NCBI GenBank assembly: GCA_965602015.1
Contig: OZ271918.1
Location: forward strand, 1,664,001 to 1,728,000
Direction of reading: 5' to 3'
DNA: 64,000 nucleotides
Source: Salinispira sp.
GTDB taxonomy: Bacteria; Spirochaetota; Spirochaetia; DSM-27196; Salinispiraceae
Positions 49,169 to 64,000 of this stretch are shown here, one piece after another. The stretch's first letter is position 1. The number at the start of each line of letters is the position of its first letter. Position numbers and translations under genes: made by a program. The notes beneath the pieces were generated by a model. That model was not told where the DNA came from and did no database searches. It worked only from the letters and a program-made list of their open reading frames with translations.

Positions 49169-50058
49169 CACATTGCGGTAGTAGTGAACAACACACCGTT
49201 GCCAACGGGCTTTCGGAAAAAACTCCTTGATGGATTCTACAAGTCCAATGCATTTATCAGTGATAAATAGCTGACTATCCTTCAATCCACGAGCTTTCAG
49301 ATGGGTCAAGAAATTGCTCCAACCGGCTTTATCTTCCTTTTCACCTTCAACAATGCCCAATACGCTGCGATATCCGCTCTCTGAGACACCGATTGCCACC
49401 AGGATACTGACATTTCGCACTTCACCGGCCCAGGAGCGCTTGAGAATTGTACCGTCCAGGTAGACATAGGGATAGTCTTCGGTTAGCGGCTTATTGCGCC
49501 AGGCATCGATTTTCTCGTAGATCTCTTGATTGAGATTGCTGATTGTTGAGGGACTTACTTTGGTTCCCCAGAGCGCTTCGGTGATATCTTCTACCCGGCG
49601 GACGGAAACCCCGGCAAGATACATTTCTACCAACGCTTCCTCGACAGAAGTTTCCCGGCGCTTGTAGCGCTCGATTATTGCAGTTTCGAAGGGCAAGTTT
49701 CGAAGCTTGGGAACTTTGAGCTCGACTCGACCGGCGGTAGTATCGAGCTTTCGCTTGTAGTGCCCGGCTCGGGTGTCTTTGCGCGCATCTGTGCGCTCGT
49801 ACTTTTCTGCCTGGATCAGCCGATCGGCTTCTGCATCGAGCATGGCATTCAGAGTTTCTTCGACGGTTTCTTTGACCATCTGGGTTACCTGACTCTGTAC
49901 GAGACCCTCATCAATTTGTATGATCCTCCGAGTGGGATCGTTCTTCGGTTCCATTCTGTCCTCCTGGTTGAATGGTCTTGTGGTGATTCCATTTCAGCAT
50001 TGGAGGACATTTTTTTTCAATATCTTTTTTGAATGTGCGAAATTTTTTGGACGCTATC
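49169..50058 (-). mobile_element. truncated second IS256-family element (transposase 5' part from 49954)
   Basis: IR GATAGCGTCCAAAAAATTTCGCAC at 50058; GVSVRR, YLDG, WQRCVVH, then cut by the TGT..ACA element. Confidence 0.88.
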
Positions 50059-50496
50059 TCGCCATAGCGGGGCGTCGTGTTCTAATGGAAGAAAAACATG
50101 CGGCATTGCGACCGCCGAATATTTCCATTGTAGGATGCCCGTTTCGCTGAATCCCTTGTCCTTGATTGGTGAGCTGTCCTGTGTCCTTTTATAAATACGA
50201 AGTGTGCCGTTGGTCATTTGCTTGTCTGACCGTTTAAGAACCTGCATATGTAACTGAGGCAAGGCATCTGCCTTCGACCTCCTCTTTTGAATCAGGCTGA
50301 AACGGATACTGAATTAATTCTACGGCTGGCAATGACTGCCTGATCGTCTATATGTGTTTGGTGCAGACAAGTTCTGCTACCCAGGGAAGAATAATCCCCT
50401 CAGACAATGAATGACTTTCGGCACAGGTCGTCAGCAATCTGCTGTGGAAACGGAAATTTTTCGGGGCCGGGTTAGAAACGTCCCTTGACGTCGGGG

Positions 50497-50517
50497 GGCC
50501 TTATATGTGTTATATTG
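50497..50517 (+). other. array-terminal recombination junction, attI-like candidate
   Basis: GGCCTTATATGTG|TTATATTG: cassette-1 end present but no attC body to its left. Confidence 0.45.
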
Positions 50518-51298
50518 CTTGAAATTCTTCTTTATCAAAATGTCTTCTAAAAATGATTACCTGGTTGGCAAGGTAGAAAACTGTCGTAGGAATTAACAGA
50601 AGAGTGAAAATAATGTTCATAGAACTGGAGTGCATTAAATTCTCACCTCGTGTCACTGAAATTATCACAATTGGAACTATCGTTGCAGCGTAGACTACTA
50701 AAAATGGAACTATTCCAAGGATTGTATGTAGAGTATTTTGTTTATAAACTTTAATTCCAATTTTTGTAGCAGACCAAAATTGATATTTTGTTACTGTTGC
50801 AACGGGTAGGATATGCACGACCCGAACCATGCCAAATAACACAAGTACAAAAGTGACAATTATAGATATATTTAAAAAAATATTGCTGTCACTTTGGAAG
50901 GCAATTTGTAATACTGTTGGAATCATCGCACCAATTACTGCTAATAACCAATAAGGTATCAGCCTAATCAATATAAATAATATTGTAACTAAAAGACTTG
51001 GTAGTCTGCGTATAACAAAAAATAGCAAATTACTTGAAGCCCGAGGTGATTCGACCGGCTCTAATAATTTAAGAAAGAAGTATAAATAAACTATGCTGGA
51101 TAGAATCCCAAAAATAGCAATGAAAAGATAATCTCCAATCGACTGCGTTTCAATATCTCCTTGTATACTTCCAGGGCGAACTATCAGCTGTCCGAAGGAT
51201 ATAACCATTGAAAAAACGGCGAAGTGAATCAGGGGTCTTTTATTCAGAAGAATAAAGTCTTTAACTACACTAAAATGTGTTTTAAGATTTTCTATCAT
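50510..51298 (-). CDS. cassette 1: multi-TM hypothetical membrane protein
   Basis: AT-rich; ~6 hydrophobic helices; stop codon inside the ATATAAC core. Confidence 0.75.
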   Translation of the reverse strand: MIENLKTHFSVVKDFILLNKRPLIHFAVFSMVISFGQLIVRPGSIQGDIETQSIGDYLFIAIFGILSSIVYLYFFLKLLEPVESPRASSNLLFFVIRRLPSLLVTILFILIRLIPYWLLAVIGAMIPTVLQIAFQSDSNIFLNISIIVTFVLVLFGMVRVVHILPVATVTKYQFWSATKIGIKVYKQNTLHTILGIVPFLVVYAATIVPIVIISVTRGENLMHSSSMNIIFTLLLIPTTVFYLANQVIIFRRHFDKEEFQAI

Positions 51299-51333
51299 AA
51301 AAAAAAATATATCACATTTAGTAAAATATTAGT

Positions 51334-52584
51334 GGGCACCTCTGGAAACTCGATGTTCAGCCGCCTGGATGCGCATAACACCTGGTTTTCCTTTTTACCC
51401 GCTTACTTTTTCACATCGGTAACTGCGGTCACCGATCCATTGCTATCTATTCCGGTGGTTTACCCCACTGGTTGCTTAACCAGGAAGCAGAATCTCTGAA
51501 GATTGTACACAAGGTTTCCAAGGCCAATCTCAAAATCTGCTCGTTGTAATCCTTTTCTCCGAATTACCCGGAAATTAAGAACATGCTTCTTGTGAGCAAA
51601 TACATGCTCAACCCGGGAGCGTGTTTTAGACCACAAGGCATTTTCTTTGCTCTGCTCCGCAGTAATCGGGGTACCGCGTTTTCCTTTGTGCATTATGCGG
51701 GCACAATCTTTTCCTGCTGTCCGGATTACCGCGGTTAAACATTTCTGTCCCCAGTAGCCCTTGTCCGCGAATACTTCCTGACGAAAATCCTGTTCCCTGT
51801 TCAGCACCGGCGCAAAAGACTCCGAATCATGGACTGACGCATTTGTTGAATGGTAGTCCAGTATTAACTTGGAACCGTTATCTATTTTTGCAGTATTCTT
51901 ATAGCCAAAATAGGACTTACCGTGTTTCACGGTCCAACCGGCATCCATATCAATCTGACTTCGACGAGGGCTGGATTCACTTTCTTCAGTATCCTCACTT
52001 TCAGCTTCAAATTTCTCTTTTTCACCCTTCTTAAGATGACGTTTCGGCGCTTCAATAACCTCCGCATCAACAATACGTCCATCATTCAGGATAAGTTCGT
52101 TGTCGTACAAAACAGCATCAAATCTCCCGAACAGCTTTTTCATTGCTCCTGTTTTTGTCAGCTTCTCTCGAAACTCCCAGATGGTTTTTTCATCAGGCAC
52201 CTTGTCACCGCTGCGAAGGCCAATAAAATCTCTGAAGCTTGTTCTGTCTTCAACCTGAAATTCCAGTTCCCCGTCGCTGAGATTATATATGCGTCCCAGA
52301 ATCAGCATCTTAAACTTCATCAGTTCATCGAAAGCCGGGCGTCCACCCGGTCCTTTGGGGATGCTTTTGAGGGCTCTGCGGATAATCGGCCTAAAAATTT
52401 CCCAATTAATGTGTTCATTCAGCTGCAGTAGCTTGTTACGCTTTCTAAGGCGCTCAAGTCTGGCATTTTCTTCACTGTCTGAAAATGATAATTGGGATCC
52501 CATATAAATCCTCCGGATGCAATCTCCGGTTATTCTAGGTTTATTGCCTTCCTTTGTAAATTCTTCGAGTTTCCAGAGGTGCCC
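51334..52584 (-). mobile_element. IS5 family element, copy 2 (1251 bp)
   Basis: Same IRs as copy 1; 4-bp TSD TAGT; abuts the attC1 extended core. Confidence 0.95.
51460..52503 (-). CDS. IS5 family transposase
   Basis: Protein identical to 39850-40893. Confidence 0.93.
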   Translation of the reverse strand: MGSQLSFSDSEENARLERLRKRNKLLQLNEHINWEIFRPIIRRALKSIPKGPGGRPAFDELMKFKMLILGRIYNLSDGELEFQVEDRTSFRDFIGLRSGDKVPDEKTIWEFREKLTKTGAMKKLFGRFDAVLYDNELILNDGRIVDAEVIEAPKRHLKKGEKEKFEAESEDTEESESSPRRSQIDMDAGWTVKHGKSYFGYKNTAKIDNGSKLILDYHSTNASVHDSESFAPVLNREQDFRQEVFADKGYWGQKCLTAVIRTAGKDCARIMHKGKRGTPITAEQSKENALWSKTRSRVEHVFAHKKHVLNFRVIRRKGLQRADFEIGLGNLVYNLQRFCFLVKQPVG

Positions 52585-52590
52585 TAGTCA

Positions 52591-52706
52591 ATATAACAAC
52601 CACTTAACCTGTGAGCCGTAATTGGCGTGGAGTTTGCCCTGCCCTTCAGGGCAGGAATAGCAGACTCCATGACAATAGGCGAATCAGGTTGAAGTGCTTG
52701 TTATAT
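52591..52706 (-). repeat. attC1 (type A, 116 bp)
   Basis: Minus strand ATATAAC-AAGCA-CTTCAACC…GGTTAAG-TGGTT-GTTATAT; extra C in L''. Confidence 0.92.
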
Positions 52707-53099
52707 TGCCCAATTCTCTATCTCTAACTCAGTAATCCGGCCGAAATGCTTTTCATTGTTTGTTACAAGAATCAGGTTATGTGTAATAGCTGTCGAGGCA
52801 ATCAATAAATCCATATCTGCAATAATGTTTCCATCCATTGCAAGTTTTGCTTTGAGTTGGCCAAAAGTTTCCATAACTGAATGAGTAATTGGCAGCAGAG
52901 GAAATATTTCTGCGATTCGATGAATGTTGGCCAGATTTTTTTCTCTATGAGTAGATTTATTAGCACCATATATTAATTCACCATAGGAAATAACAGAGAG
53001 AGATTTAGGTGAGTTTATATTTTTCTCGAAGTTCGATATAACCGTGGAGTGATTTTTGAGGCTATAGACTATTATGTCCGTATCAATCAAATAATTCAT
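52701..53099 (-). CDS. vapC: cassette 2: VapC/PIN toxin
   Basis: YLIDTD, YGEL, DLLIAS, LVTNNEKHF. Confidence 0.9.
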   Translation of the reverse strand: MNYLIDTDIIVYSLKNHSTVISNFEKNINSPKSLSVISYGELIYGANKSTHREKNLANIHRIAEIFPLLPITHSVMETFGQLKAKLAMDGNIIADMDLLIASTAITHNLILVTNNEKHFGRITELEIENWAI

Positions 53100-53361
53100 T
53101 CGAGTTCTCAAAGCGATCGGAATTTCCCCTGGACCGTTTTATATCCATTACTATTTCTTCCGCAGATCGATCATCTGTCCAGCTTCCTGCCATTTGAAGA
53201 AATTCTTTTGTCGGATTTTTATGAAACTGTTCCGGTGTAGATAAATACTTTTGGATGATTAATATGACTTCTTGGCTAACCGAGCGCTTCTCCATCGCCG
53301 CCCGTTCTTTCAGCGAGTTATACAATTTATCATCGATGTCTTTCACTTGGAGATTTGCCAT
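53083..53361 (-). CDS. cassette 2: FitA-like ribbon-helix-helix antitoxin
   Basis: MANLQVKDID..LKERA...RSVSQEV; overlaps vapC. Confidence 0.85.
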   Translation of the reverse strand: MANLQVKDIDDKLYNSLKERAAMEKRSVSQEVILIIQKYLSTPEQFHKNPTKEFLQMAGSWTDDRSAEEIVMDIKRSRGNSDRFENSNELFD

Positions 53362-53455
53362 GAGGTTCCTCCCAAACACGTATTATTCATGAAATATTAG
53401 TATATTTTCATGCAAATGTAATTGTAATCCGGAATCCTTCAGGGGTCAATATAAC

Positions 53456-55231
53456 GAGGCTGTAGAAAAAGTCCCTGCAGCCATCAATAATTCTACCCGG
53501 ACAGGCCTTTATAGGCAAAGCATAAAATGGCCTTCGTTTAATAAAGCGACTACGCCACCCTGTGTTTCCGGATTGCACTGGGAATCTCCAGTATGCCTCT
53601 CTTTCTTTTCTACTGCCAGCACATCTTCAGCTTTTCTATATTGTGCACCATACAAAACAACCGCCACTGGGTATTTACTTTTGTCTTCCCTCGCACCGTG
53701 AATCTGTTCAGCCCCTTGGTTCCGCATAAATCACCGAACACCGGTTCAACCGCCCCCATTCGCCGGGAGTAAATGCTTCGTGCCTCTGAGGTATCAAATC
53801 TGTCCTGACTAATCTTTAGGTAATCGATGGTCTGTGGCGTTTGTGTCCGCTTAAAAAACGTCACCTGCCTGAATGGACTTGCAGGTTTTCGAATACACTT
53901 GCTACGCAACTCACAATTGCTGCACTGTTCTTTGCTTGCCCTGTACCGATCCCCGACGAGCTTTCCGTCGGCGGATTTGAAATTCTTCATGTTTAGCCGC
54001 AATATATGCCCGGCCGGACAGGTAGCTATTTTCTTTTTCCGGTCGTAGTGAAAATCTGAGGGCTGGAAGTAGCGTTTGGTATGTACCGCCCTCCAGTTAT
54101 CAGTTTTCTTTTTATGAACTTCATTGCCAGTGAAGCGGATATCACGCTTGCGAAACTGATTATCCGGGATATATGCTTCAATCCCATGTTCAATGAGATA
54201 CTTCATATTCACAGCGTTATGAAACCCAGAGTCTGCTGTGATCACGGTTTTCCCGTAAATGTCAGATGAGATCCCGGTACTGCGGCATTGTTTCTTAATA
54301 CCAGTCAAGATTTCCGGCAAATGACCGGATTCATTGATATCACCATAGGCTTCGGCCCATACAATGACCTGATGTTTATCATCAACTGCAGCAATTCCAT
54401 TGTAGCCTTGAATGACACCATGGGAACTGACCATTTTTGCACTCTCATTGTCGGTGAGATTACTCTTCACCGGTTTGCCTGAGGCACCAAGCCTGTCATC
54501 ATTATCATCCAGCCAGCGGTTGATTTTATCTGCCTTGGTTTCCAGCTTTTTGATTGCTGCAATTTCCTGAACTTGATTCTCAGCAGGTGATTTCTGACCA
54601 TCCTCATTTTGATGCTTTTCAACCAGGTAGGCGATGGACTTTCTGATACTCCTGACTTTCTTCAGAAGCTCCGCCTTGGTCCCGCTCCATTCCTTGGAAC
54701 AGTTTGATGAAATCTTGCAGCCATCTATGGCAAACATTTCCTTGCCAATCAGGTTCTCTGAATAACAGATGGCAAGCACCTTGGTGAACAAATCGACACA
54801 TTCACTATCCATAGTTGCAATAAAATCGGCGATGGTGGTGTGATGCGGATGTGTATCGGCGGACAGAGCCATACAGATAATATTCTCATCACAAAACCGG
54901 GCAATCTTGCGACTGCTGGTTATCCCCCGTGAATAGGCAAAGAGAATAATCTTCAAAAGCACCGCCGGGTTATAGGCCGGGGCACCGGTAATATCATTCT
55001 GGCACCGCGACTCGAAAATAGAAAGATCAAGTTTTTTGCTGAAGAGGATGTGGAGTGTATGCTCAAATGTTCCAGGCAGAATTTGTTTTGACAGATTGAC
55101 CGGCAGCATTAACTGCTGATCGTAGGAATAGTCTTTGTATCGAGGCATGCCGTCCCTCCCATAGGCTGGCTGATACATGAATTTTACCATGGAACTACAT
55201 TTACTAGAAGCGGGACTTTTTCTACAGCCTC
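53456..55231 (-). mobile_element. IS1182 family element (1776 bp)
   Basis: 20-bp perfect IR GAGGCTGTAGAAAAAGTCCC; 3-bp TSD AAC. Confidence 0.92.
53610..55148 (-). CDS. IS1182 family transposase
   Basis: GAPAYNP, SSRKI, AIDGCKI, ADSGF, CPAG, RRMGAVEPVFG. Confidence 0.92.
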   Translation of the reverse strand: MPRYKDYSYDQQLMLPVNLSKQILPGTFEHTLHILFSKKLDLSIFESRCQNDITGAPAYNPAVLLKIILFAYSRGITSSRKIARFCDENIICMALSADTHPHHTTIADFIATMDSECVDLFTKVLAICYSENLIGKEMFAIDGCKISSNCSKEWSGTKAELLKKVRSIRKSIAYLVEKHQNEDGQKSPAENQVQEIAAIKKLETKADKINRWLDDNDDRLGASGKPVKSNLTDNESAKMVSSHGVIQGYNGIAAVDDKHQVIVWAEAYGDINESGHLPEILTGIKKQCRSTGISSDIYGKTVITADSGFHNAVNMKYLIEHGIEAYIPDNQFRKRDIRFTGNEVHKKKTDNWRAVHTKRYFQPSDFHYDRKKKIATCPAGHILRLNMKNFKSADGKLVGDRYRASKEQCSNCELRSKCIRKPASPFRQVTFFKRTQTPQTIDYLKISQDRFDTSEARSIYSRRMGAVEPVFGDLCGTKGLNRFTVRGKTKVNTQWRLFCMVHNIEKLKMCWQ

Positions 55232-55346
55232 AACAACCACTTGAGCGGCGAGCCGTAATTGGCGTGGAGTTTGCCCGCCGCCAGGCGGAATGCGCAAACT
55301 CCATGACAATAGGCGAGTCCGTCTCGAAGTGCTTGTTATATGGCCC

Positions 55347-56027
55347 TCAATATTCTACCAGATAATCTTCCTGGTAACCTTCTATAAATTTCAAAATAGA
55401 TTCATCATATTTCACTCGGATCGATTTGATAATTATCAATGTTGCAATATCAAAAAATTGCTTCGTCCTGGACATCGTGAAATATGAATTATCCAAATTT
55501 GATTTTTCATACGAGCGCGTACGGATATCAGATATCCACAGAGCAATTTCGTTTTTTGTGAGAATACCGGGAATCTCGGTTATCTCAGAGTCTGTAATCG
55601 AATTGAGAATGCCATCAAATTTATCTGGATCACCATGATAAATTGCCGATTCCAAAAAAGAATTTTCCGTTCGGTAGAGCTGTTCCCGAATATTATTACT
55701 CATCTCGGGATTGTATCGAAGTTTAAAATGCCAATTTAGCCAGTACAACATCAGGAAATCAGCTTGGAGATGAGACAACCATCCAAAAAGATAGCTGTGA
55801 TTAATCTGGCCCTCATACTTCTGGTAGAAATTCATCAGATTTTGAAATCGGACTGAAATATCTCTAGGGCCATACATATGGATGGCTCGCTTCTCATCAA
55901 GGGAAGCGTTTTTTCTCATGTGGATGGCATCGGGAGCTATACTCCCAATCAGGAACTGGCTTCGATCAAGATTGATCGTGTTGAGAATTCTGTCTGCAAT
56001 CTCAAGATGCAAAATGGTGTACGGCAT
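55347..56027 (-). CDS. cassette 3: zinc-dependent phospholipase C-like protein
   Basis: MP....H, GSIAPDA, GWLSHLQAD. Confidence 0.7.
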   Translation of the reverse strand: MPYTILHLEIADRILNTINLDRSQFLIGSIAPDAIHMRKNASLDEKRAIHMYGPRDISVRFQNLMNFYQKYEGQINHSYLFGWLSHLQADFLMLYWLNWHFKLRYNPEMSNNIREQLYRTENSFLESAIYHGDPDKFDGILNSITDSEITEIPGILTKNEIALWISDIRTRSYEKSNLDNSYFTMSRTKQFFDIATLIIIKSIRVKYDESILKFIEGYQEDYLVEY

Positions 56028-56081
56028 ATTTATTATTCAGCTTTCCTTATTGCAGATAGATTTCCGTTCTCCGAATAGTCC

Positions 56082-56181
56082 ATATAACAACCACTTAACC
56101 TGTGAGCCGTACATTGGCGCGTGTTTTTGCGAATGCAAAAACCGTGACAATAGGCGAATCAGGTTGAAGTGCTTGTTATAC
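56082..56181 (-). repeat. attC3 (type A, 100 bp)
   Basis: Same arms as attC1, shorter apical hairpin. Confidence 0.92.
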
Positions 56182-56221
56182 GGCATTTTATCATCTTTTT
56201 AGTATTTTGATTATTATTTAT

Positions 56222-56626
56222 TTAATTTGAGATCAATTTAAGCCCATCAGTTACATACTGTTGGATTTTCTTGTCGTGTGAAATTAGTGTATATCCAGAT
56301 TCAATCGCCTGCCAGACTAACATTCGATCAAACGGATCTTTATGGTTTTCTTTTTTGGGTAAGCGATAATACGAAGTCAAAATCTCATTGGAGATCTCAG
56401 AAATTTCAAACCCCGATTTTGATATTTGGATCAATAATTGATCAGGATTGAGATCCCCCAAATCGAGTTTACCAAGAGAATATTTAATTGAAATTTCCCA
56501 TAAACTTATTCCCGACACGAATTTCTGATCTGAGGATGATTCCAAAATCTGGAGAATTTCTTTTGATAAGTTTTCGGGGTTGAAAAGTGTCCAGAGTAGG
56601 ATGTGGGTATCAACTAGATACATCAT
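56222..56626 (-). CDS. vapC: cassette 4: VapC/PIN toxin
   Basis: YLVDTHILLW, SLWEI, HKDPFDRML. Confidence 0.9.
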   Translation of the reverse strand: MMYLVDTHILLWTLFNPENLSKEILQILESSSDQKFVSGISLWEISIKYSLGKLDLGDLNPDQLLIQISKSGFEISEISNEILTSYYRLPKKENHKDPFDRMLVWQAIESGYTLISHDKKIQQYVTDGLKLISN

Positions 56627-56859
56627 TGGCCAATTAATTCTTCTTCAGTCATTTCGAAATCATTTGTGAATGCGATTTCGTGTTCTTTCAAGAGGCCAAT
56701 TTTAACTGAATGATTTTGATTTAATTCAGAGATCGGAATTAACGCTGCAACGCTTTTTTTATTCCGGCCGTATGTGATTATAATTTTTTCTCCAGATTCA
56801 ACTTCTTTAAGAATTTCAGAAAAGTGTGTTTTAAATTCTCCAACGGCAAAGGTTTTCAT
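56623..56859 (-). CDS. cassette 4: Phd/YefM antitoxin
   Basis: EFKTHFSEIL..V..GE.IIIT; ATGA overlap with the toxin. Confidence 0.88.
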   Translation of the reverse strand: MKTFAVGEFKTHFSEILKEVESGEKIIITYGRNKKSVAALIPISELNQNHSVKIGLLKEHEIAFTNDFEMTEEELIGQ

Positions 56860-56929
56860 AGATTAATAATCTAATTATTTTGTCAACTTGTCAAGATCGT
56901 TTTCTGAGAGTGAATCAAATTTTATGTCC

Positions 56930-57044
56930 GTATAACAACCACTTGAGCGGCGAGCCGTCAATTGGCGTGGAGTGTGCCCGCCGCCAGGCGGAACAAGCAA
57001 ACTCCATGACAATAGGCGAGTCCGTCTCGAAGTGCTTGTTATAT
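56930..57044 (-). repeat. attC4 (type B, 115 bp)
   Basis: GTATAAC…GTTATAT imperfect palindrome. Confidence 0.92.
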
Positions 57045-57051
57045 TCCGCTT

Positions 57052-58206
57052 CTATTCAACCTTCGTGAAGTACACTACATACTTCAATGATGTCTCTGCT
57101 GTGACTTCGCGATCGTCATTAAATTCAACTCCATTTTCTTCGAAGGTTAATGCGATTCCTCCTTTATAGAAGAATAGTCGTACTTCCCGAAATCCGACGC
57201 CTTCTCCGAATGTCCAATGGAATGGGGTATCTGCTTGAGTTTCGACAAAATATAAATCGAAATCACCTACACGAGAATTTTCTGCATAAATTCTATGGAG
57301 AGCCCTGATTGGTACGACTAGACTTTTCATTTCACTGGAAAATGTTAGCTCAATTTCAGAATTTTGAATCTGTTCAATATCAAACTCTAAATTTTCATGT
57401 TCCATAATACTGTGTGATTCATAAACATATCTACCTGCGAAATTTGTAAGGTAATCTGATGTAAATTGCTGAACGATTAGTTGAAGGGGAGCATCTATCG
57501 AACCGGCAAAAATATAAGGTTGTCTATATTCCCAAGTTCCAAGCCATTTCCTATCGGGTACATTTTCTTGATAATAGATATAAATCTGATCTCCGTCGGT
57601 CTTTAAATAGTTATTCCCATTAGAAAACGTTCGTCCATCAAATTCGAGTGTTATTTGATTGCGGATTATCTTGTTACCATTAAAAATATCGATTTCACTG
57701 ATAACAACCATCGAGTTTGAGATTGAAAGTTCCAATATTTCTGGTGCATGACCAGAACCTTGGAATCTACGAGGTAATTGCTGGACGTAGAAACCTTCAA
57801 ACTCAGTTATTTCCTGTACGGACTCAATGTTTGTGGTCTCCGGGAGTTGGAATCTGGGATAAGTCCCCGGAACTCGATTTGCGATTCTTGATGAGATTTC
57901 ATTAGCAATATTCGTTTCTATTTGCTCAATATAGCCGGAGAAGCACCAGCCGGAAAAACCTGTTTGGCTCTGCACTCTTACCCAGGGGGCAGTTATCGAA
58001 TTAATCGTTTCCACCTCCCCCGTTTCCAAAATCGTCACGGCGGTAAACTGTGGTAGCGTGGTGATTATTTCTGAATTAAGCGATTGATTTTCTCTAATCC
58101 TTAGGTTGTAGGTGACATAGTGCGTTGGAATAAATTGTTGCGCAAAAATATTTGCCGATATAATCATGAGCAAAATACATAAGAAGCGTTTCATCATCTC
58201 TCCCAT
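57052..58206 (-). CDS. cassette 5: secreted SH3-domain protein
   Basis: Signal peptide; LRIRE…WVRV…GWCFSGYI. Confidence 0.8.
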   Translation of the reverse strand: MGEMMKRFLCILLMIISANIFAQQFIPTHYVTYNLRIRENQSLNSEIITTLPQFTAVTILETGEVETINSITAPWVRVQSQTGFSGWCFSGYIEQIETNIANEISSRIANRVPGTYPRFQLPETTNIESVQEITEFEGFYVQQLPRRFQGSGHAPEILELSISNSMVVISEIDIFNGNKIIRNQITLEFDGRTFSNGNNYLKTDGDQIYIYYQENVPDRKWLGTWEYRQPYIFAGSIDAPLQLIVQQFTSDYLTNFAGRYVYESHSIMEHENLEFDIEQIQNSEIELTFSSEMKSLVVPIRALHRIYAENSRVGDFDLYFVETQADTPFHWTFGEGVGFREVRLFFYKGGIALTFEENGVEFNDDREVTAETSLKYVVYFTKVE

Positions 58207-58261
58207 CTAGATTGGAGCTATCTATCGATTCCATTAAACAACACACAGATATCATGCGTGA

Positions 58262-58376
58262 ATATAACAACCGCTTGAGCGGCGAGCCGTCAATTGGCGT
58301 GGAGTTTGCCCGCCGCCAGGCGGAATTCGCAAACTCCATGACAATAGGCGTGTCCGTCTCGAAGCGCTTGTTAAAT
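58262..58376 (-). repeat. attC5 (type B, 115 bp)
   Basis: ATATAAC…GTTAAAT imperfect palindrome. Confidence 0.92.
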
Positions 58377-58395
58377 GGCGCTCCATCATCAACGA

Positions 58396-58671
58396 CTATT
58401 CGATCACGATTTTAATTTTTCGATCCAGAGCCCTCGCATATTTCTCGATCGTGGAAAGCCGGATATCTTCTGCATGATTCTCGATTCGGGAGATCGCAGG
58501 TTTCTTGGTATGTAGCTTCTCGGCCAGTTCTTCTTGAGTCATTCCTTTTTCAATTCTAGCTTGTTTCAGTAGGGCACCGATTTTGAAGTTCTCATATTCA
58601 GAATCATAATTAAGAGAAAATTCTGGATCCTTCTGCTTGCGATCATTAATATATTTTTGGAGATCACTCAT
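58396..58671 (-). CDS. cassette 6: XRE-HTH antitoxin (HigA-like)
   Basis: LKQARIEKGMTQEELAEKL…ISRIEN; ATGA overlap. Confidence 0.88.
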   Translation of the reverse strand: MSDLQKYINDRKQKDPEFSLNYDSEYENFKIGALLKQARIEKGMTQEELAEKLHTKKPAISRIENHAEDIRLSTIEKYARALDRKIKIVIE

Positions 58672-59015
58672 GTGTTCCTCCTCAGCCAATCTGCTTTGCG
58701 CCTCTCGGCCAAATTAATTTCTTTGGCTGGAGTCTTCTGTGATTTCTTGGAAAATCCATTCGTTAATACCACGAACTTGTTCCCATTTTGAAATCCCAGA
58801 ATACGATATGCGTTCCCTGAGCTTGGGGCCCGAACTTCCCAAATGTCGTCCGTGTTTTTCAATTTCTTGAAATATGAACTTGGAACCACATCCAGGTCTT
58901 CTATCAATTGAAGGACCCAAGTTACTTTCTCGGCATCTTTAGCTTTTAGATTATCCAAGAATTCAGCAATGGGCGATTCGCCGTTTTCTGTTTTGTAAAA
59001 GACAATCTGCCGCAT
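58668..59015 (-). CDS. cassette 6: RelE/HigB (Gp49-like) toxin
   Basis: IWEVR…YRILGF…LTNGFSKKSQKTP. Confidence 0.88.
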   Translation of the reverse strand: MRQIVFYKTENGESPIAEFLDNLKAKDAEKVTWVLQLIEDLDVVPSSYFKKLKNTDDIWEVRAPSSGNAYRILGFQNGNKFVVLTNGFSKKSQKTPAKEINLAERRKADWLRRNT

Positions 59016-59021
59016 AGATAA

Positions 59022-59041
59022 TGTTAACTTAAATGTTAACA
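59022..59041. promoter_or_regulatory. palindromic operator candidate for the TA pair
   Basis: TGTTAAC-TTAAAT-GTTAACA just upstream of the toxin start. Confidence 0.5.
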
Positions 59042-59222
59042 GTTTGCAACCCAAAGAATTCATTCAAATAACATTCGAATTTTAATAACTGATAGAGCAA
59101 AAAGAAGACGCTTCATTGTGATATAGGTTCGATTCTTTGAACTCAGCTCACAAGACCAGATCACAATAACGCGCCAACCCATATTTCTGAGATCACGCAA
59201 CTGATTGCGATCTCTTCGCTTA

Positions 59223-60573
59223 AATGGTGTCCAAATTAGTTCGCAATTTCATGTAGGAGCCAGCTTCCTCCAGCGGGTTAAGCGGCTATTTTCGGGATGA
59301 GATCTCGTTGCTCATCCAGTATTTCCTTTTTAATATAGGCCTTGCCGGCTGTCCAGTCTTCCGTGTATTCAATCAGGAAACAGGTCACCAATCTCAGGTA
59401 AGAATCCTGAGATGGGAAAATCCCGACGACTTTCGACCGCCGACGGATCTCCCGGTTCAGTCTTTCCAGCATGTTTGTCGAAGCGACCTTCCGATGATCG
59501 AGCTTTGGAAATTCATAGAACTGGAGTGAGTCTTCAAGTCCGTTATCCAGGATTTCCACCGCCTCAGGGAATTGCGATTCCAGATCATCCATCACCTGTT
59601 TGGCATATTCCCGTGCGGTACCGGCATCCGGTTGAAGCCAGATATGTTTGATACGGGCGGCAACATGCTCTTTGTGTTTGGCTCTCACTTTTGCCAACAC
59701 GTTCCGCATGAAATGTACTTTGCAGCGTTGCCAGCTGGAACCAAGGAATTCTTTCTGGATAGCATTCTTCAATCCCAGATGCGCATCTGAGACCACAAGC
59801 CACACGGACCGAAGGCCACGCTCCTTCAACCTCTGGATCAGGAACCGGTAATTGTCTTCATTTTCAGCATCCATGGGCTCTATGGCCAGGATTTCCCGTT
59901 CTCCAGCCCTGTTGAGGCCGCACACGACCATAACCGCATGATTGTAGACTCTCCCGTCATCCCGGATCTTTTCATACAGGGCGTCTATCCAGATTACTGG
60001 GTACTCCGCTTCAAGGGGGCGATTGCGAAATGTATCAACCTGTTCATCAAGACCTTTGTTGATTTCTGAAACCTGGCTTGCGGAAATATTCTCGATTCCC
60101 AGCTGTTTTGCCAGACGATCAATCTTCCGGGTTGAAACGCCGTTAATGAATGCTTCCTGGACAACCTGAAGAAGCGCCTGCTCAGACCGGCGCTTCTCGG
60201 TGACAAAGAAGGGGATATACCCTCCCTTTCGGAGCTTTGGAACCACCAGATACATGGTACCTAATCGGGTATCAAAACGGCGAACCCGTGTTCCGGAAAA
60301 GTGAGTAGCCCGGTTGTGGGAGTGCTGACCTTTGGGGGCACCGACCTTGGATTCGACTTCGATTTTCATAAGCTGCTCTGTTGTCCATTTGAGCATCTCA
60401 AACAAGGGATCGGATTCACCGGTGAATTGGGATAGCAGATTCTTGAAATCTGCGGTAGAGTTTTTTGGGGCCATGATTACTTACTCCTTCTGGTTGTGTA
60501 TCGCTACTTAACCTTCGGAGAGAATTGTGGCTCCTTTTACTTTTCTAAATTGCGAACATTATTGGACGTGATC
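59223..60573 (-). mobile_element. IS256 family element, copy 2 (1351 bp)
   Basis: Inverted copy of 35510-36860; 8-bp TSD TTCGCTTA. Confidence 0.95.
59278..60474 (-). CDS. IS256 family transposase
   Basis: Protein identical to 35609-36805. Confidence 0.95.
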   Translation of the reverse strand: MAPKNSTADFKNLLSQFTGESDPLFEMLKWTTEQLMKIEVESKVGAPKGQHSHNRATHFSGTRVRRFDTRLGTMYLVVPKLRKGGYIPFFVTEKRRSEQALLQVVQEAFINGVSTRKIDRLAKQLGIENISASQVSEINKGLDEQVDTFRNRPLEAEYPVIWIDALYEKIRDDGRVYNHAVMVVCGLNRAGEREILAIEPMDAENEDNYRFLIQRLKERGLRSVWLVVSDAHLGLKNAIQKEFLGSSWQRCKVHFMRNVLAKVRAKHKEHVAARIKHIWLQPDAGTAREYAKQVMDDLESQFPEAVEILDNGLEDSLQFYEFPKLDHRKVASTNMLERLNREIRRRSKVVGIFPSQDSYLRLVTCFLIEYTEDWTAGKAYIKKEILDEQRDLIPKIAA

Positions 60574-60934
60574 TTCGCTTATTGTCACGAAATTTCTTTT
60601 GCCAATAGTTCCGATTATTACTAATTGATTTTCTTCTTTTGCATTTGTGATTATGCCAAAAGCAACCGTTGATCAATATCACTGTCTTAAATCGGGGAAG
60701 AACAATATCTGGGGTACCGGGCAATTTCTTATTGTGGATAGTAAATCTATATCCATTTCTATGAAGAATGGATCTTATTAAAACCTCGGGCTTTGTGTTT
60801 TTCGAATGGATTTGCGACATTATGTAGCTTCGCTGGCGTGGCGAAAAAATATCCATGAACAACCCGGGTTATCTGTTTCCTATTACACTCCTGGAAATGA
60901 CTGTCTGATTTCTGATTGAAAATTTTTTACGTCC

Positions 60935-61051
60935 ATTTAACAACCACTTAACCTGTGAGCCGTACATTGGCATGGAGTTTGCCCTGCCCTTCAGGGCAGG
61001 ACCAGCGGACTCCATGACAATAGGCGAATCAGGTTGAAGTGCTTGTTATGA
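60935..61051 (-). repeat. attC6 (type A, 117 bp)
   Basis: ATTTAAC…GTTATGA; apex GCCCTTCAGGGC as in attC1. Confidence 0.92.
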
Positions 61052-61732
61052 CGCGCCTTTATTTTTATGGCAGTTCATCTGATGAAGGTAAATTTCAATA
61101 TCCTTTTCATCTATACCCTGATTTTCAATCAGTTGCCATCTATCGCTGTTCTTTAGTAATTGAATTATTTCTTTTGCCGACATTGATAAATCTTCGCCAT
61201 AATGTTTCCCAGTGATTTCATAGATATGTTGTGAGATAGTAAAAGTCTTCGGAATCTCTTGCTTCAAGGTAGCGTTATAACATAGGTGTCCACCCGCAGC
61301 ATAAATTAGGAAACCTTTCTCGGTAAGATGATTTTCTTCATCGATAAAATGCTTTTCTTTCAAAATCTTATAATTTTTATTTTCTACATCGGGTTCTTTC
61401 TTGAAATAGCATTGTTGTAATAATTTCCAATTTGCCTTTTCTGAAAGAAGAGAGAAGAAATCAGAAACAGTAGAAAAATCCTCGAGATAATTTCCGATCG
61501 CATATGTCGGAAGATTTGTTGTGTACCAACCATTTTCCAAATCATATGCCAGCAATTGCGATAATCCTTGATGGGAATTTTCATGGACTACTTTCTTTAG
61601 GTTTTCTAATGCAACATCGTGACCACAAACTACACTCGTCGGTTCGGAATCTGAGTCTATTTCCGAAAGCTTTGCTTTTAATCGTGTGATTTCTTTTTTC
61701 AAGAAGGCTCGGTTATTTTCAAACTGATTCAT
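61046..61732 (-). CDS. cassette 7: hypothetical protein
   Basis: Fills the cassette; stop codon in the attC core. Confidence 0.7.
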   Translation of the reverse strand: MNQFENNRAFLKKEITRLKAKLSEIDSDSEPTSVVCGHDVALENLKKVVHENSHQGLSQLLAYDLENGWYTTNLPTYAIGNYLEDFSTVSDFFSLLSEKANWKLLQQCYFKKEPDVENKNYKILKEKHFIDEENHLTEKGFLIYAAGGHLCYNATLKQEIPKTFTISQHIYEITGKHYGEDLSMSAKEIIQLLKNSDRWQLIENQGIDEKDIEIYLHQMNCHKNKGAS

Positions 61733-61813
61733 GGAGCATCCCGATAATTTTAGAGATTACAAACATAGTATCATAAATACCATTAATTAACAGTAAGAAA
61801 ATCTTCTACGTCG

Positions 61814-61924
61814 TCATAACAACCTGTTGAGCGGCGAGCCGTACATGGCGCAAAACTTGCCTGGCGAAGCCAGAAAAGCAAGTTTTGTGACATAGGCGAG
61901 TCCGTCTCGAACAGCTTGTTATGT
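61814..61924 (-). repeat. attC7 (divergent type B, 111 bp)
   Basis: TCATAAC-AACCTGTTGAGCGGCG…CTCGAACAGCTT-GTTATGT with compensatory changes. Confidence 0.9.
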
Positions 61925-61932
61925 ACTGTATT

Positions 61933-62352
61933 TCAATTTATTGATCGTCTCTCGCCAAGTTTTTCCACAATATCATCAACTACTGCAGATAAATTTTTCT
62001 TAATATCTGATTGCCAATAGCGTAGAACTTTCCAACCATCATGTTCTAAACTGGATGTAACTTCCCGGTCTCTCTCTTTATTTCGCGAAATCTTTTGTGT
62101 CCAGTAATCCACGTTTGTTTTTGGCATACTAAAATTTTCTGGGTGCATATGCCAAAAATCTGAATCAATGAATACAATAACCTTTCCATTTCTAAAGACA
62201 ATATCCGGCTTTCCAATTATTTTTTTTACATGCTTTGTAAAATATATTTTCCTTTTACGTAATTCCTTAAAAACCATTTTCTCCGGCTGAGTATTAATAG
62301 ATTTTATATTTTTCATATTTAGATGTCTTTCTTCAGGAGTTAGATTATCCAT
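61933..62352 (-). CDS. vsr: cassette 8: Vsr very-short-patch repair endonuclease
   Basis: MKNIKS.NT.PE, GKPDI, DSDFWH, GWKVLRYW. Confidence 0.92.
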   Translation of the reverse strand: MDNLTPEERHLNMKNIKSINTQPEKMVFKELRKRKIYFTKHVKKIIGKPDIVFRNGKVIVFIDSDFWHMHPENFSMPKTNVDYWTQKISRNKERDREVTSSLEHDGWKVLRYWQSDIKKNLSAVVDDIVEKLGERRSIN

Positions 62353-63347
62353 TAGAAATAATTATCTGTTTTAGAAAAGTCCATCAAATAGTTTTCATCA
62401 TCGATTTTATAAAAAGTAACGTGGACTCTTCCATATCGCTCTAGATCCGATCTACTTACGTAAGCCCCATTTGCCAAACCTAATCGGTGACGAAAATATT
62501 CACCTAATAAACTATTATTATGTGGTGTTTCTATTGCTTGACCATTTTCATCTTTTTGTGCACGTGCACAATTAAATACTTTAGAATCGTCAGTTACGAC
62601 TGTAAAATGCTGAGGCTTTGGTGGAAAGAAATCGCTTCTATAAACATCCGGTGTCAATTGAATATATGCTTGATTTGGTTCTCGCCCTGGTCTTTGCCCC
62701 CAATTTAAACCACCTTTACTTTGCACTTCACCATCACGAGAAGAAATTAAAGGAATTCGTACAGATTCAACGTTAGTTAAATTGGATTGAGAAGCAGTGC
62801 CGGAGTGCTCTTCCGTTGTATGTTTACGATAATATCTGTAATCGCTATATACAGTTATATAATTTTCGACTTCCGAATGATTACAATAAACGGAGTCTTT
62901 TTCGATCTCATTATAATAATCTATCACATCCAGATCACTGATCTGAGACAGAATTTCCCTCTGTTTAGTTCTTTCATTCTTTAAAAATGCATTCTGTGTG
63001 TAATTCGCAGAGCCAATAAATGATTTATACAATTCATTCTTTTTTTTCCAAATATATAATTTGCTATGAACTGCAGGAGCTTCAGAAACATAACCACATG
63101 AAAACCGATTTTGAAAATCAGTGCCCATTATTGATTGAAAACCTTTATGATTGCTAATGGAAATACCATCTGAAGGTACCATGCCAACTAGTAGTGATAC
63201 CTTGATGTCAGAATTAATCTCAGAAATTTCTGATAAGTGGTGAAAAGCCATAGCAGACGTAGCATAACCAGATATGATTAATAATTCATCTGCCCCTTCT
63301 CGAGCTGGTACAATTAACGATTCATGGTAAAGTTTTTTTGTTAACAT
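62352..63347 (-). CDS. cassette 8: PLD-domain type II restriction endonuclease (NgoFVII-like)
   Basis: HSKLYIW..IGSANYT; GGLNWGQ. Confidence 0.85.
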   Translation of the reverse strand: MLTKKLYHESLIVPAREGADELLIISGYATSAMAFHHLSEISEINSDIKVSLLVGMVPSDGISISNHKGFQSIMGTDFQNRFSCGYVSEAPAVHSKLYIWKKKNELYKSFIGSANYTQNAFLKNERTKQREILSQISDLDVIDYYNEIEKDSVYCNHSEVENYITVYSDYRYYRKHTTEEHSGTASQSNLTNVESVRIPLISSRDGEVQSKGGLNWGQRPGREPNQAYIQLTPDVYRSDFFPPKPQHFTVVTDDSKVFNCARAQKDENGQAIETPHNNSLLGEYFRHRLGLANGAYVSRSDLERYGRVHVTFYKIDDENYLMDFSKTDNYF

Positions 63348-64000
63348 TAGTTCGTTATGTATACATCCTCTTTTTCAAGTATGTACAACTGCTCCTTCGA
63401 TGTTTCATTATATAATTCTAAATGCTCTGGAAGAATGATAGATTCAAAATTTGGTTTTATCGACTCATATTGTTCACCGGAAAAACTTTTCAAAACAGCT
63501 TCAAAAATAATTCTTGCGCCATCAACAGGAACAGCCATTCCGATTTGCTTTCTCACGCTTTCTTTGGAACCTATAAAAGTAAATGAATCGGGAAATGTTT
63601 GAAGCCGTGCTCGTTCACGATTAGTCAAAGCTCTGTTTTCACTCCAATGGTAGACATGTGTTCCTCCACCGCCACTTCCTGTCACTGTATATGACGGTTT
63701 TGTAGGGTCTAACCTACGATAAATTTGACTAATTTTTGCACCTTTAACATTTAACTGTAAATGCTCTGGAATAACCGCTGTAAATGCATTTTGTCCGGGT
63801 TTTATATATTTTAATCTTTCAACCACAGTTGGGGACTGCTTAGTAAACTCATTATTACTAGCATTCTCAGGGATAGGTGGATTTTCTATAGCATCCTTAC
63901 AGGTTCTTAACTTTGTCTGATATGGATTGGGTGATGGAATTTGAAAAGTTACATTTTGACTCTTATGAATTCCAATAATAATAATTCGATGCCTAGCTTG
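63347..64000 (-). CDS. cassette 8: DNA (cytosine-5) methyltransferase, 3' part
   Basis: QARHR (motif VIII), RERARLQTFPD (IX), KQIGMAVP (X); frame open to the window edge. Confidence 0.93.
   Translation of the reverse strand, partial: QARHRIIIIGIHKSQNVTFQIPSPNPYQTKLRTCKDAIENPPIPENASNNEFTKQSPTVVERLKYIKPGQNAFTAVIPEHLQLNVKGAKISQIYRRLDPTKPSYTVTGSGGGGTHVYHWSENRALTNRERARLQTFPDSFTFIGSKESVRKQIGMAVPVDGARIIFEAVLKSFSGEQYESIKPNFESIILPEHLELYNETSKEQLYILEKEDVYITN

Follow-up and report, generated by a model that had tools for sequence, protein, structure and literature searches.

A single unpaired base beyond the R box of integron cassettes in Salinispira, apparently a selected structural variant of attC

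The 64,000-nucleotide stretch of Salinispira sp. DNA analysed here (contig OZ271918.1, positions 1,664,001 to 1,728,000; hereafter the window) carries the distal end of a chromosomal integron, and its cassettes end in attC sites of an unusual build. In 25 of the 25 distinct cassettes of this genome, the two ends match over 9 bases, the following base of the cassette start (A on the top strand, T on the bottom strand; position 10, arm positions being numbered outward from the crossover C) is unmatched, and the base after it is paired again. Judged by covariation and by retention in diverged cassettes, this bulge on the R arm is a real and apparently selected structural variant of attC, to which a function can be assigned by inference only.

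Results

Pairing of the cassette ends

The genes of the main array are on the minus strand, and the plus strand of the window is thus the attC bottom strand. A BLAST search with four attC sites of the window returned 18 attC bodies in the main array, a second array and two isolated matches. The second array (at 3.44-3.46 Mb; G000:3439700-3456780, where G000 is the present genome) comprises 15 cassettes without an integrase, with a near copy of the attI-like site at its head, while the attI-like junction ahead of the first main-array cassette is presumably attI. The two arrays hold 34 cassettes genome-wide, 25 of them distinct. Several second-array cassettes are duplicates of main-array ones, and such duplicates at new positions show, as far as their sequences tell, that cassettes were shuffled in the past; the strand used is not revealed. 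One isolated attC (G000:3339522-3339638), which has no cassette-start pattern on its downstream side, is possibly a cassette at a secondary site.

The first-pass annotation had described seven complete cassettes whose left end has the form GTTA-N5-C and whose right end has the form G-T-N5'-TAAC (N5 being five variable bases). The pattern is present in all seven, and cassette 1 is incomplete, as its R'' arm is retained and no attC body lies left of 50509, in sequence (window 50040-50509) that is unique in the genome. The proposed complementarity of 9 base pairs (bp) rather than 7 holds in all distinct cassettes. Throughout the 34 cassettes, the unpaired top-strand A is followed by a paired base, and the full 9 bp occur in 33, the sole exception being a duplicate that has lost the pair at position 8. 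The further G:C pair was described too narrowly: the pair past the bulge, between the cassette-start base and far-end position 10, is present in 25/25 cassettes, as G:C in 22 and as A:T in 3, and the stem continues beyond it. One of the three A:T cassettes is cassette 8 (left end 61918), for which a T instead of C had been correctly noted; since its partner A lies beyond the window (about 64582 on the window scale), with 5 bp past the bulge, the cassette is compensated and not an exception. Four right ends, two of them in the distinct set, were located through an exact 9-base complement, by which their 9 bp, not their positions 10 onward, are given by construction; one further end was set by hand.

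When the ends of the distinct cassettes were permuted, positions 5-9 matched in 125/125 observed cases (null 68), and in the bulged register position 10 matched in 25/25 (null 19.7, p=0.0005), position 11 in 18/25 (null 6.6) and position 12 in 16/25 (null 8.3), position 13 being at chance; pairing in this register falls with distance (100, 72, 64 and 32% at positions 10-13). The register without the bulge gave 15/75 matches (null 15.2). With one cassette per N5 type (16 cassettes), the values were 36/48 vs 23.2 with the bulge and 8/48 vs 8.0 without it, and position 10 alone was not significant (p=0.06). Shifted pairing was rejected, as offsets 0 and +2 showed no excess at arm positions 10-12 and offset -1 did not exceed non-cognate pairs at positions 11-12. 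Covariation at positions 11-12 is found in the bulged register only. A homologous cassette pair that is 76% alike has kept positions 1-11, and in two other homologous pairs N5 differs between the members, each of which is matched to itself. The AAC/GTT triplets of R'' and R' frame an imperfect palindrome in 25/25 distinct cassettes, and the wider GTTRRRY consensus is loosely followed (position 5 is T in 21/25). A stop codon lies within R'' in 7/25 cassettes, one arm of which is therefore coding. The observation at the cassette ends is confirmed as real and is stronger than first noted, and the pattern did not vanish in the larger cassette set of this genome.

A second build with a local mini-hairpin

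In family f3 and some other families, the far end pairs over 8 bases only, and a local mini-hairpin begins at position 11 of the cassette start (44/54, vs 1, 1 and 5 at positions 8-10). The base behind this mini-hairpin pairs with position 9 (48 G-C and 8 C-G of 64), by which the same T is left out. Hairpin closure and a pair between position 9 and the far end are mutually exclusive (55 vs 1). Going by sequence, both forms yield 9 bp, a spare T and then a helix, the hairpin form resting on covariation because the energy folds of six examples are less clear. Its loops are of the G..A type on the bottom strand in 41/56 and on the top strand in none, and loops of this type are extra-stable in DNA. 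A role of the mini-hairpin in RNA was rejected on this strand bias and on the occurrence of the cUUCGg motif in just 14/58 tops; an Rfam scan of window 49900-64000 gave no match. At L262-L264 (genomes G790 and G737), the same mini-hairpin lies one base closer in several cassettes and leaves no spare base, which is a natural control. The extra determinant outside the R box suggested by the first-pass annotation is supported in part, as a structural one, by the covariation past the bulge, the retention in diverged homologues and this second architecture, while its 9-bp part had already been described.

Range across other integrons

Scorable cassettes were obtained from 21 of the 40 relative loci first collected, about half giving none. 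In total, 521 raw cassettes (including the 25 of this genome) were reduced to 386 by a match at positions 4-7, used as the filter for true partner ends, and to 315 distinct ones. The site detector demands an L stem, recovers 17/18 of the genome's own sites and has a background of 1 match in 300 kilobases (kb) read on both strands. Other genomes of the phylum, presumably spirochaetes, contributed 133 cassettes from 35 loci, comprising 31 of bulge form, 56 of hairpin form, 15 contiguous and 31 other, and the spare T is thus retained in 87/133. In 42 hairpin-free cassettes of independent genomes (A at position 10, position 9 paired), the bulged register matched in 81/126 (null 44) and the unbulged one in 28/126 (null 26.6). 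The p-values overstate independence, as kin share cassettes.

Elsewhere, the bulge form occurs in 5/64 cassettes of Vibrionaceae and 1/54 of a mixed IntI1-like set (6/118 together), in 2/23 from metagenome relatives of the integrase and 2/16 from the phylum of a Desulfocapsa genome, and in 0/70 from viral contigs with IntI1-like integrases (104 raw, 77 filtered). A universal integron feature is rejected by these low counts; one locus of another phylum (L157) has the bulge in 2/2 cassettes. The Vibrionaceae, IntI1-like and viral sets show gapless extension, as do the class 1 GES and aadA5 cassettes, and control sets match in the ungapped register in 105/162 and 77/192. Position 10 of IntI1-like cassettes mostly continues the stem without a gap, as a G:C pair (top-strand C in 41/54), and the bulge thus looks like one base inserted into a widespread consensus. 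The viral contigs (L277-L340) have a top-strand C at position 10 in 58/70 by hand count, often unpaired, and some of their far ends have GAA-type motifs further out.

Predicted folding of circles and arrays

Folds were computed with DNA parameters for 18 reconstructed circles. The spare T is predicted to be unpaired in circles with a mean probability of 0.96 (n=18), while the outer pair has a mean probability of 0.66 in circles vs 0.10 in the array and reaches at least 0.8 in 11/18 circles. A lone outer pair is unstable by itself in the folding model. Only 2/18 array sites match at positions 5-9, and the full structure appears to be a property of the excised circle, because neighbouring array ends mostly mismatch. 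A look for excised circles in the contigs of one sample was uninformative: the joints listed included four of the skip type, all at repeated sites and with sides of at most 30 bases, and none of the go-back type.

Mirror geometry and central spacer

The known extrahelical bases of attC (G16, T20 and T23/24) lie on the R''-L'' arm, inside the hairpin and near L'' (PMC2727003, PMC5027507). The spare T, on the R' side and beyond the R box, is outside this definition. In the genome's own sites, the first extrahelical base of the L arm follows 3 bp (on the bottom strand G in 15/17, A in 2/17) and a distal T follows after 6 more; all 17 detected sites have 9 L pairs and the T (top-strand A) after 9 bp. 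This conserved T corresponds to T23/T24 (PMC5027507). On the R arm, the spare T belongs to the cleaved strand and is separated from the AA|C cut by 9 bp, on the outer side; its position is the two-fold mirror of that of the distal T of the L arm. According to the VchIntIA structure, P232, H240 and H241 of the non-attacking monomer grip the distal T in cis (PMC3053210). Binding of T24 in cis is reported to disarm the monomer (PMC2727003 section 29; PMC5027507) and to pull the catalytic tyrosine away (PMC2727003 section 29).

The central spacer is present and nearly closed in the genome's own sites, with 3.6 Watson-Crick pairs in the 5-base spacer (8 variants), compared with 3.0 in hairpin-form hosts, 2.4 in bulge-form hosts and 1.7 in Vibrionaceae; the last (all 5/5) are the fair comparison, as the count depends on the register for 6-base spacers. 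Pairing of the spacer in the Vibrio cholerae repeat (VCR) costs 27-fold (PMC2727003).

The integrase

The integrase gene intI lies at G000:1743026, about 15 kb outside the window and divergent from the array; its product scores 380 bits on TIGR02249 (cut-off 265) and matches the structure PDB 2A3V with E 2.6e-72. In the genomes of relatives the array runs downstream of the integrase, as in the Treponema integron (PMC3607928), which together with named homologues points to a spirochaete as the probable host. The pocket of the present integrase has kept the proline and the second histidine and has a tyrosine at the first histidine. The integrase also contains an extra N-terminal domain that may be SAM-like (Atlas 0.96; Pfam E 0.07), which was rejected as the reader of the T, as relatives with a similar extension are without the bulge.

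In a quick maximum-likelihood tree computed for 45 integrases, the bulge-form hosts G000, G005, G683 and G737 form one clade (support 97) and most hairpin-form hosts another (support 99), while G278 combines hairpin-form cassettes with an integrase nearer the bulge-form clade. The trait tracks the host class better than the integrase clade. Integrases of the hairpin-form clade have an unrelated N-terminal extension, for which one weak HARP match was obtained (E 0.03); a HARP-like reading was rejected, as this match was single and had no backing from Atlas. Among the long integrases, N-terminal extensions of these two kinds occur (L001:1189-1488; N-termini of L028 and L018).

Features of the window and inserted elements

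The positions of the cassette ends and inserted elements are listed in Table 1, in which the family names IS5-like and IS1182-like are our assumption. The 4-base target duplication of the presumed IS5-like element coincides with positions 10-13 of cassette 1, including the spare T and the neighbouring G, and the start of this cassette was left intact. The presumed IS1182-like element is flanked by AAC at an attC crossover in both copies in the genome, the second of which (G000:1729085-1733790) is interrupted, and its end motif adjoins AAC or GTT in 7/7 further sightings at other loci (including L008, L009, L077 and L259); no attC-targeting member of this family was evident in a search listing. 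At 52701-53379, 56222-56859, 58396-59063 and 60545-64000, the window also contains three gene pairs resembling toxin-antitoxin systems, two genes for Vsr and one for a nuclease of the NgoFVII type, and the gene adjoining that of the nuclease looks like one for a DNA methylase.

Table 1. Cassette ends and inserted elements in the window (plus strand = attC bottom strand).
Feature	Position	Strand	Remarks
Cassette 1, 3' end (R'' arm, positions 1-12)	50509..50520	+	Left end starts at 50509; attC hairpin body expected to the left is missing
IS5-like element inside cassette 1 leader	51334..52584	-	DUF772 and DDE transposase at 51460-52503
Cassette 1, 5' end (R' arm)	52585..52597	+	Spare T 52588, neighbouring G 52587
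Cassette 2, attC body and R'' arm	52594..52711	+	PIN toxin and RHH antitoxin; left end starts at 52700
Cassette 2, 5' end	53444..53455	+	Spare T 53446
IS1182-like element	53456..55231	-	At attC crossover, AAC on both sides
Cassette 3, attC body and R'' arm	55232..55346	+	Left end starts at 55335
Cassette 3, 5' end, then cassette 4, attC body and R'' arm	56077..56186	+	Spare T 56079; left end of cassette 4 starts at 56175
Cassette 4, L arm	56159, 56166	+	Extrahelical G 56166; distal T 56159, 9 bp from L box start
Cassette 4, 5' end, then cassette 5, attC body and R'' arm	56925..57049	+	Spare T 56927; left end of cassette 5 starts at 57038
Cassette 5, 5' end, then cassette 6, attC body and R'' arm	58257..58381	+	Spare T 58259; left end of cassette 6 starts at 58370
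Mutator (IS256-type) transposase inside cassette 6	59278..60474	-
Cassette 6, 5' end, then cassette 7, attC body and R'' arm	60930..61056	+	Spare T 60932; left end of cassette 7 starts at 61045
Cassette 7, 5' end, then cassette 8, attC body and R'' arm	61809..61931	+	Spare T 61811

Discussion

Possible roles of the spare T

In the reading that we favour and to which we give an even chance, the flipped-out T serves the R-bound integrase monomer as an extra binding and polarity cue, aiding correctly oriented insertion. The excised single-stranded circle would fold to an R arm of 9 bp, the flipped-out T and then 1-5 more pairs, and the R-bound monomer would read this T. As neighbouring array ends mostly mismatch, the cue would be fully formed in the circle only; because of this, and because the T is on the cleaved strand only for the bottom strand, reinsertion at attI in the right orientation would be favoured. 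The extra T may in addition compensate for the nearly closed central spacer.

Several observations weigh against this proposal. The main difficulty for a purely positive role is that a T docked in the same pocket would be expected to impede cleavage, since binding of T24 in cis is reported to disarm its monomer; in addition, single deletions of extrahelical bases often alter attI x attC recombination little (PMC5027507). The outer pair has a probability of at most 0.55 in 7/18 circles, and in the energy folds of six hairpin-form sites the probability of an unpaired T is only 0.47-0.90. Lineage confounds the comparison of spacers, and some genomes of the phylum have the trait rarely or not at all (G226 0/4, G790 6/17, G799 1/8). 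On the protein side, the bulge-form and main hairpin-form clades are far apart, no integrase signature tracks the trait, the sister metagenome clade with a similar N-terminal extension has the bulge in only 2/23, and the pocket residues vary among integrases.

Since a monomer is disarmed when the known T docks in it, the main rival is a brake: bound in the His-His-Pro pocket of the attacking, R-bound monomer, as T24 is on the L side, the spare T would damp cleavage in attC x attC complexes, whether in excision or when circles enter the array, with insertion at attI still possible. We consider this unlikely, even with the exact mirror geometry and the published disarming effect in its favour. 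The hairpin form displays the T regardless of the neighbouring cassette, and attI x attC and attC x attC reactions are probably not regulated alike (PMC5027507). However, the bulge of the present genome is fully formed only in the circle, the form that is cut at every insertion, and an effect there requires the extra assumption that attI complexes escape. In a bolder and similarly doubtful version, attC would be fully two-sided in integrons of this bacterial class, the mirror T in the pocket of the attacking monomer serving as a switch written in the DNA, by which attC x attC reactions are silenced and circles can still enter attI; two unrelated folds, pairing of the two ends and an extra-stable local hairpin, would have evolved to present it.

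Two further explanations are kept alive by the closer agreement of the trait with host class than with integrase clade. The spare base might be a footprint of cassette genesis, left by a process in which one end serves as the template of the other or ends are added, and ignored by the integrase. The decay of pairing with distance and the coding arm in 7/25 cassettes are consistent with this, but the retention of positions 1-11 in the 76%-alike pair is not, and copying cannot explain a compensated local hairpin that leaves the same T at the same distance; we regard it as rather improbable. Less probable again is a protein of the host class (for single-strand binding, repair or junction resolution) that reads or protects the T in place of the integrase. 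One bacterial class does contain both forms, spread over two integrase clades that are far apart, and G278 joins a bulge-side integrase to hairpin-form cassettes; yet the fixed distance of 9 bp from the cut suits a reader placed by the crossover, the bulge also occurs at the locus of another phylum (L157), and no candidate factor was identified. Very little weight is given to a frozen ancestral consensus without function, made up of the A and C of the cassette start and the G of its end. Other lineages do have a consensus at position 10, and cassettes and their ends are not independent samples, but the compensatory A:T pairs, the covariation at positions 11-12 in the bulged register only and the compensated hairpin form all oppose it.

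Significance

The current attC model of three unpaired features derives from Vibrio and class 1 sites. With a fourth feature beyond the R box, mostly in one bacterial class and in two builds, the recognised site would extend into the cassette's own ends. This would provide a single-base handle on why cassette ends match beyond the core, how insertion is preferred to excision and how the ends are made. The spare T could also limit cassette exchange between lineages, and could improve attC models, which score sites in the array state and miss pairing that exists in the circle only.

Comparison with known systems

In the available portions of the sources, the 9-base match is known and the bulge was not found in print. 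Self-pairing of R' and R'' over 9-11 consecutive complementary nucleotides is already described (PMC2727003 introduction). No bulge on the R arm or flanking hairpin was found in the available portions of PMC2727003, PMC3053210, PMC5027507, PMC7439510, PMC2095811, PMC2811028 and PMC3607928 or through literature searches, subscription journals being outside this scope and an earlier mention there possible; the words "hairpin" and "bulge" are absent from the available text of the Treponema paper (PMC3607928).

With the canonical attC systems (VCR, attCaadA7; IntI; PDB 2A3V), the present sites share the R box AAC/GTT, the extrahelical G of the L box, the distal T after a 6-bp stem, the variable terminal structure and an integrase heading the array. 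They differ in the additional unpaired T on the R' side beyond the R box and in the nearly paired 5/5 spacer, and their integrase differs from the canonical ones in the extra SAM-like N-terminal domain and the tyrosine at the first histidine of the pocket. The extended R pairing of 9-11 nucleotides shares the first 9 bp, specific to the two ends of each cassette; however, the known extensions are contiguous, whereas pairing here resumes only after one fixed spare base (ungapped position 10, 0/25). The distal T (T12'', equivalent to T23/T24) is likewise a T, 9 bp from box position 1, on the strand that the monomer cuts or would cut. That T belongs to the L arm, is intrinsic to attC and is held by the non-attacking monomer, whereas the T described here belongs to the R arm, is supplied by the 5' end of the cassette and lies under the attacking monomer.

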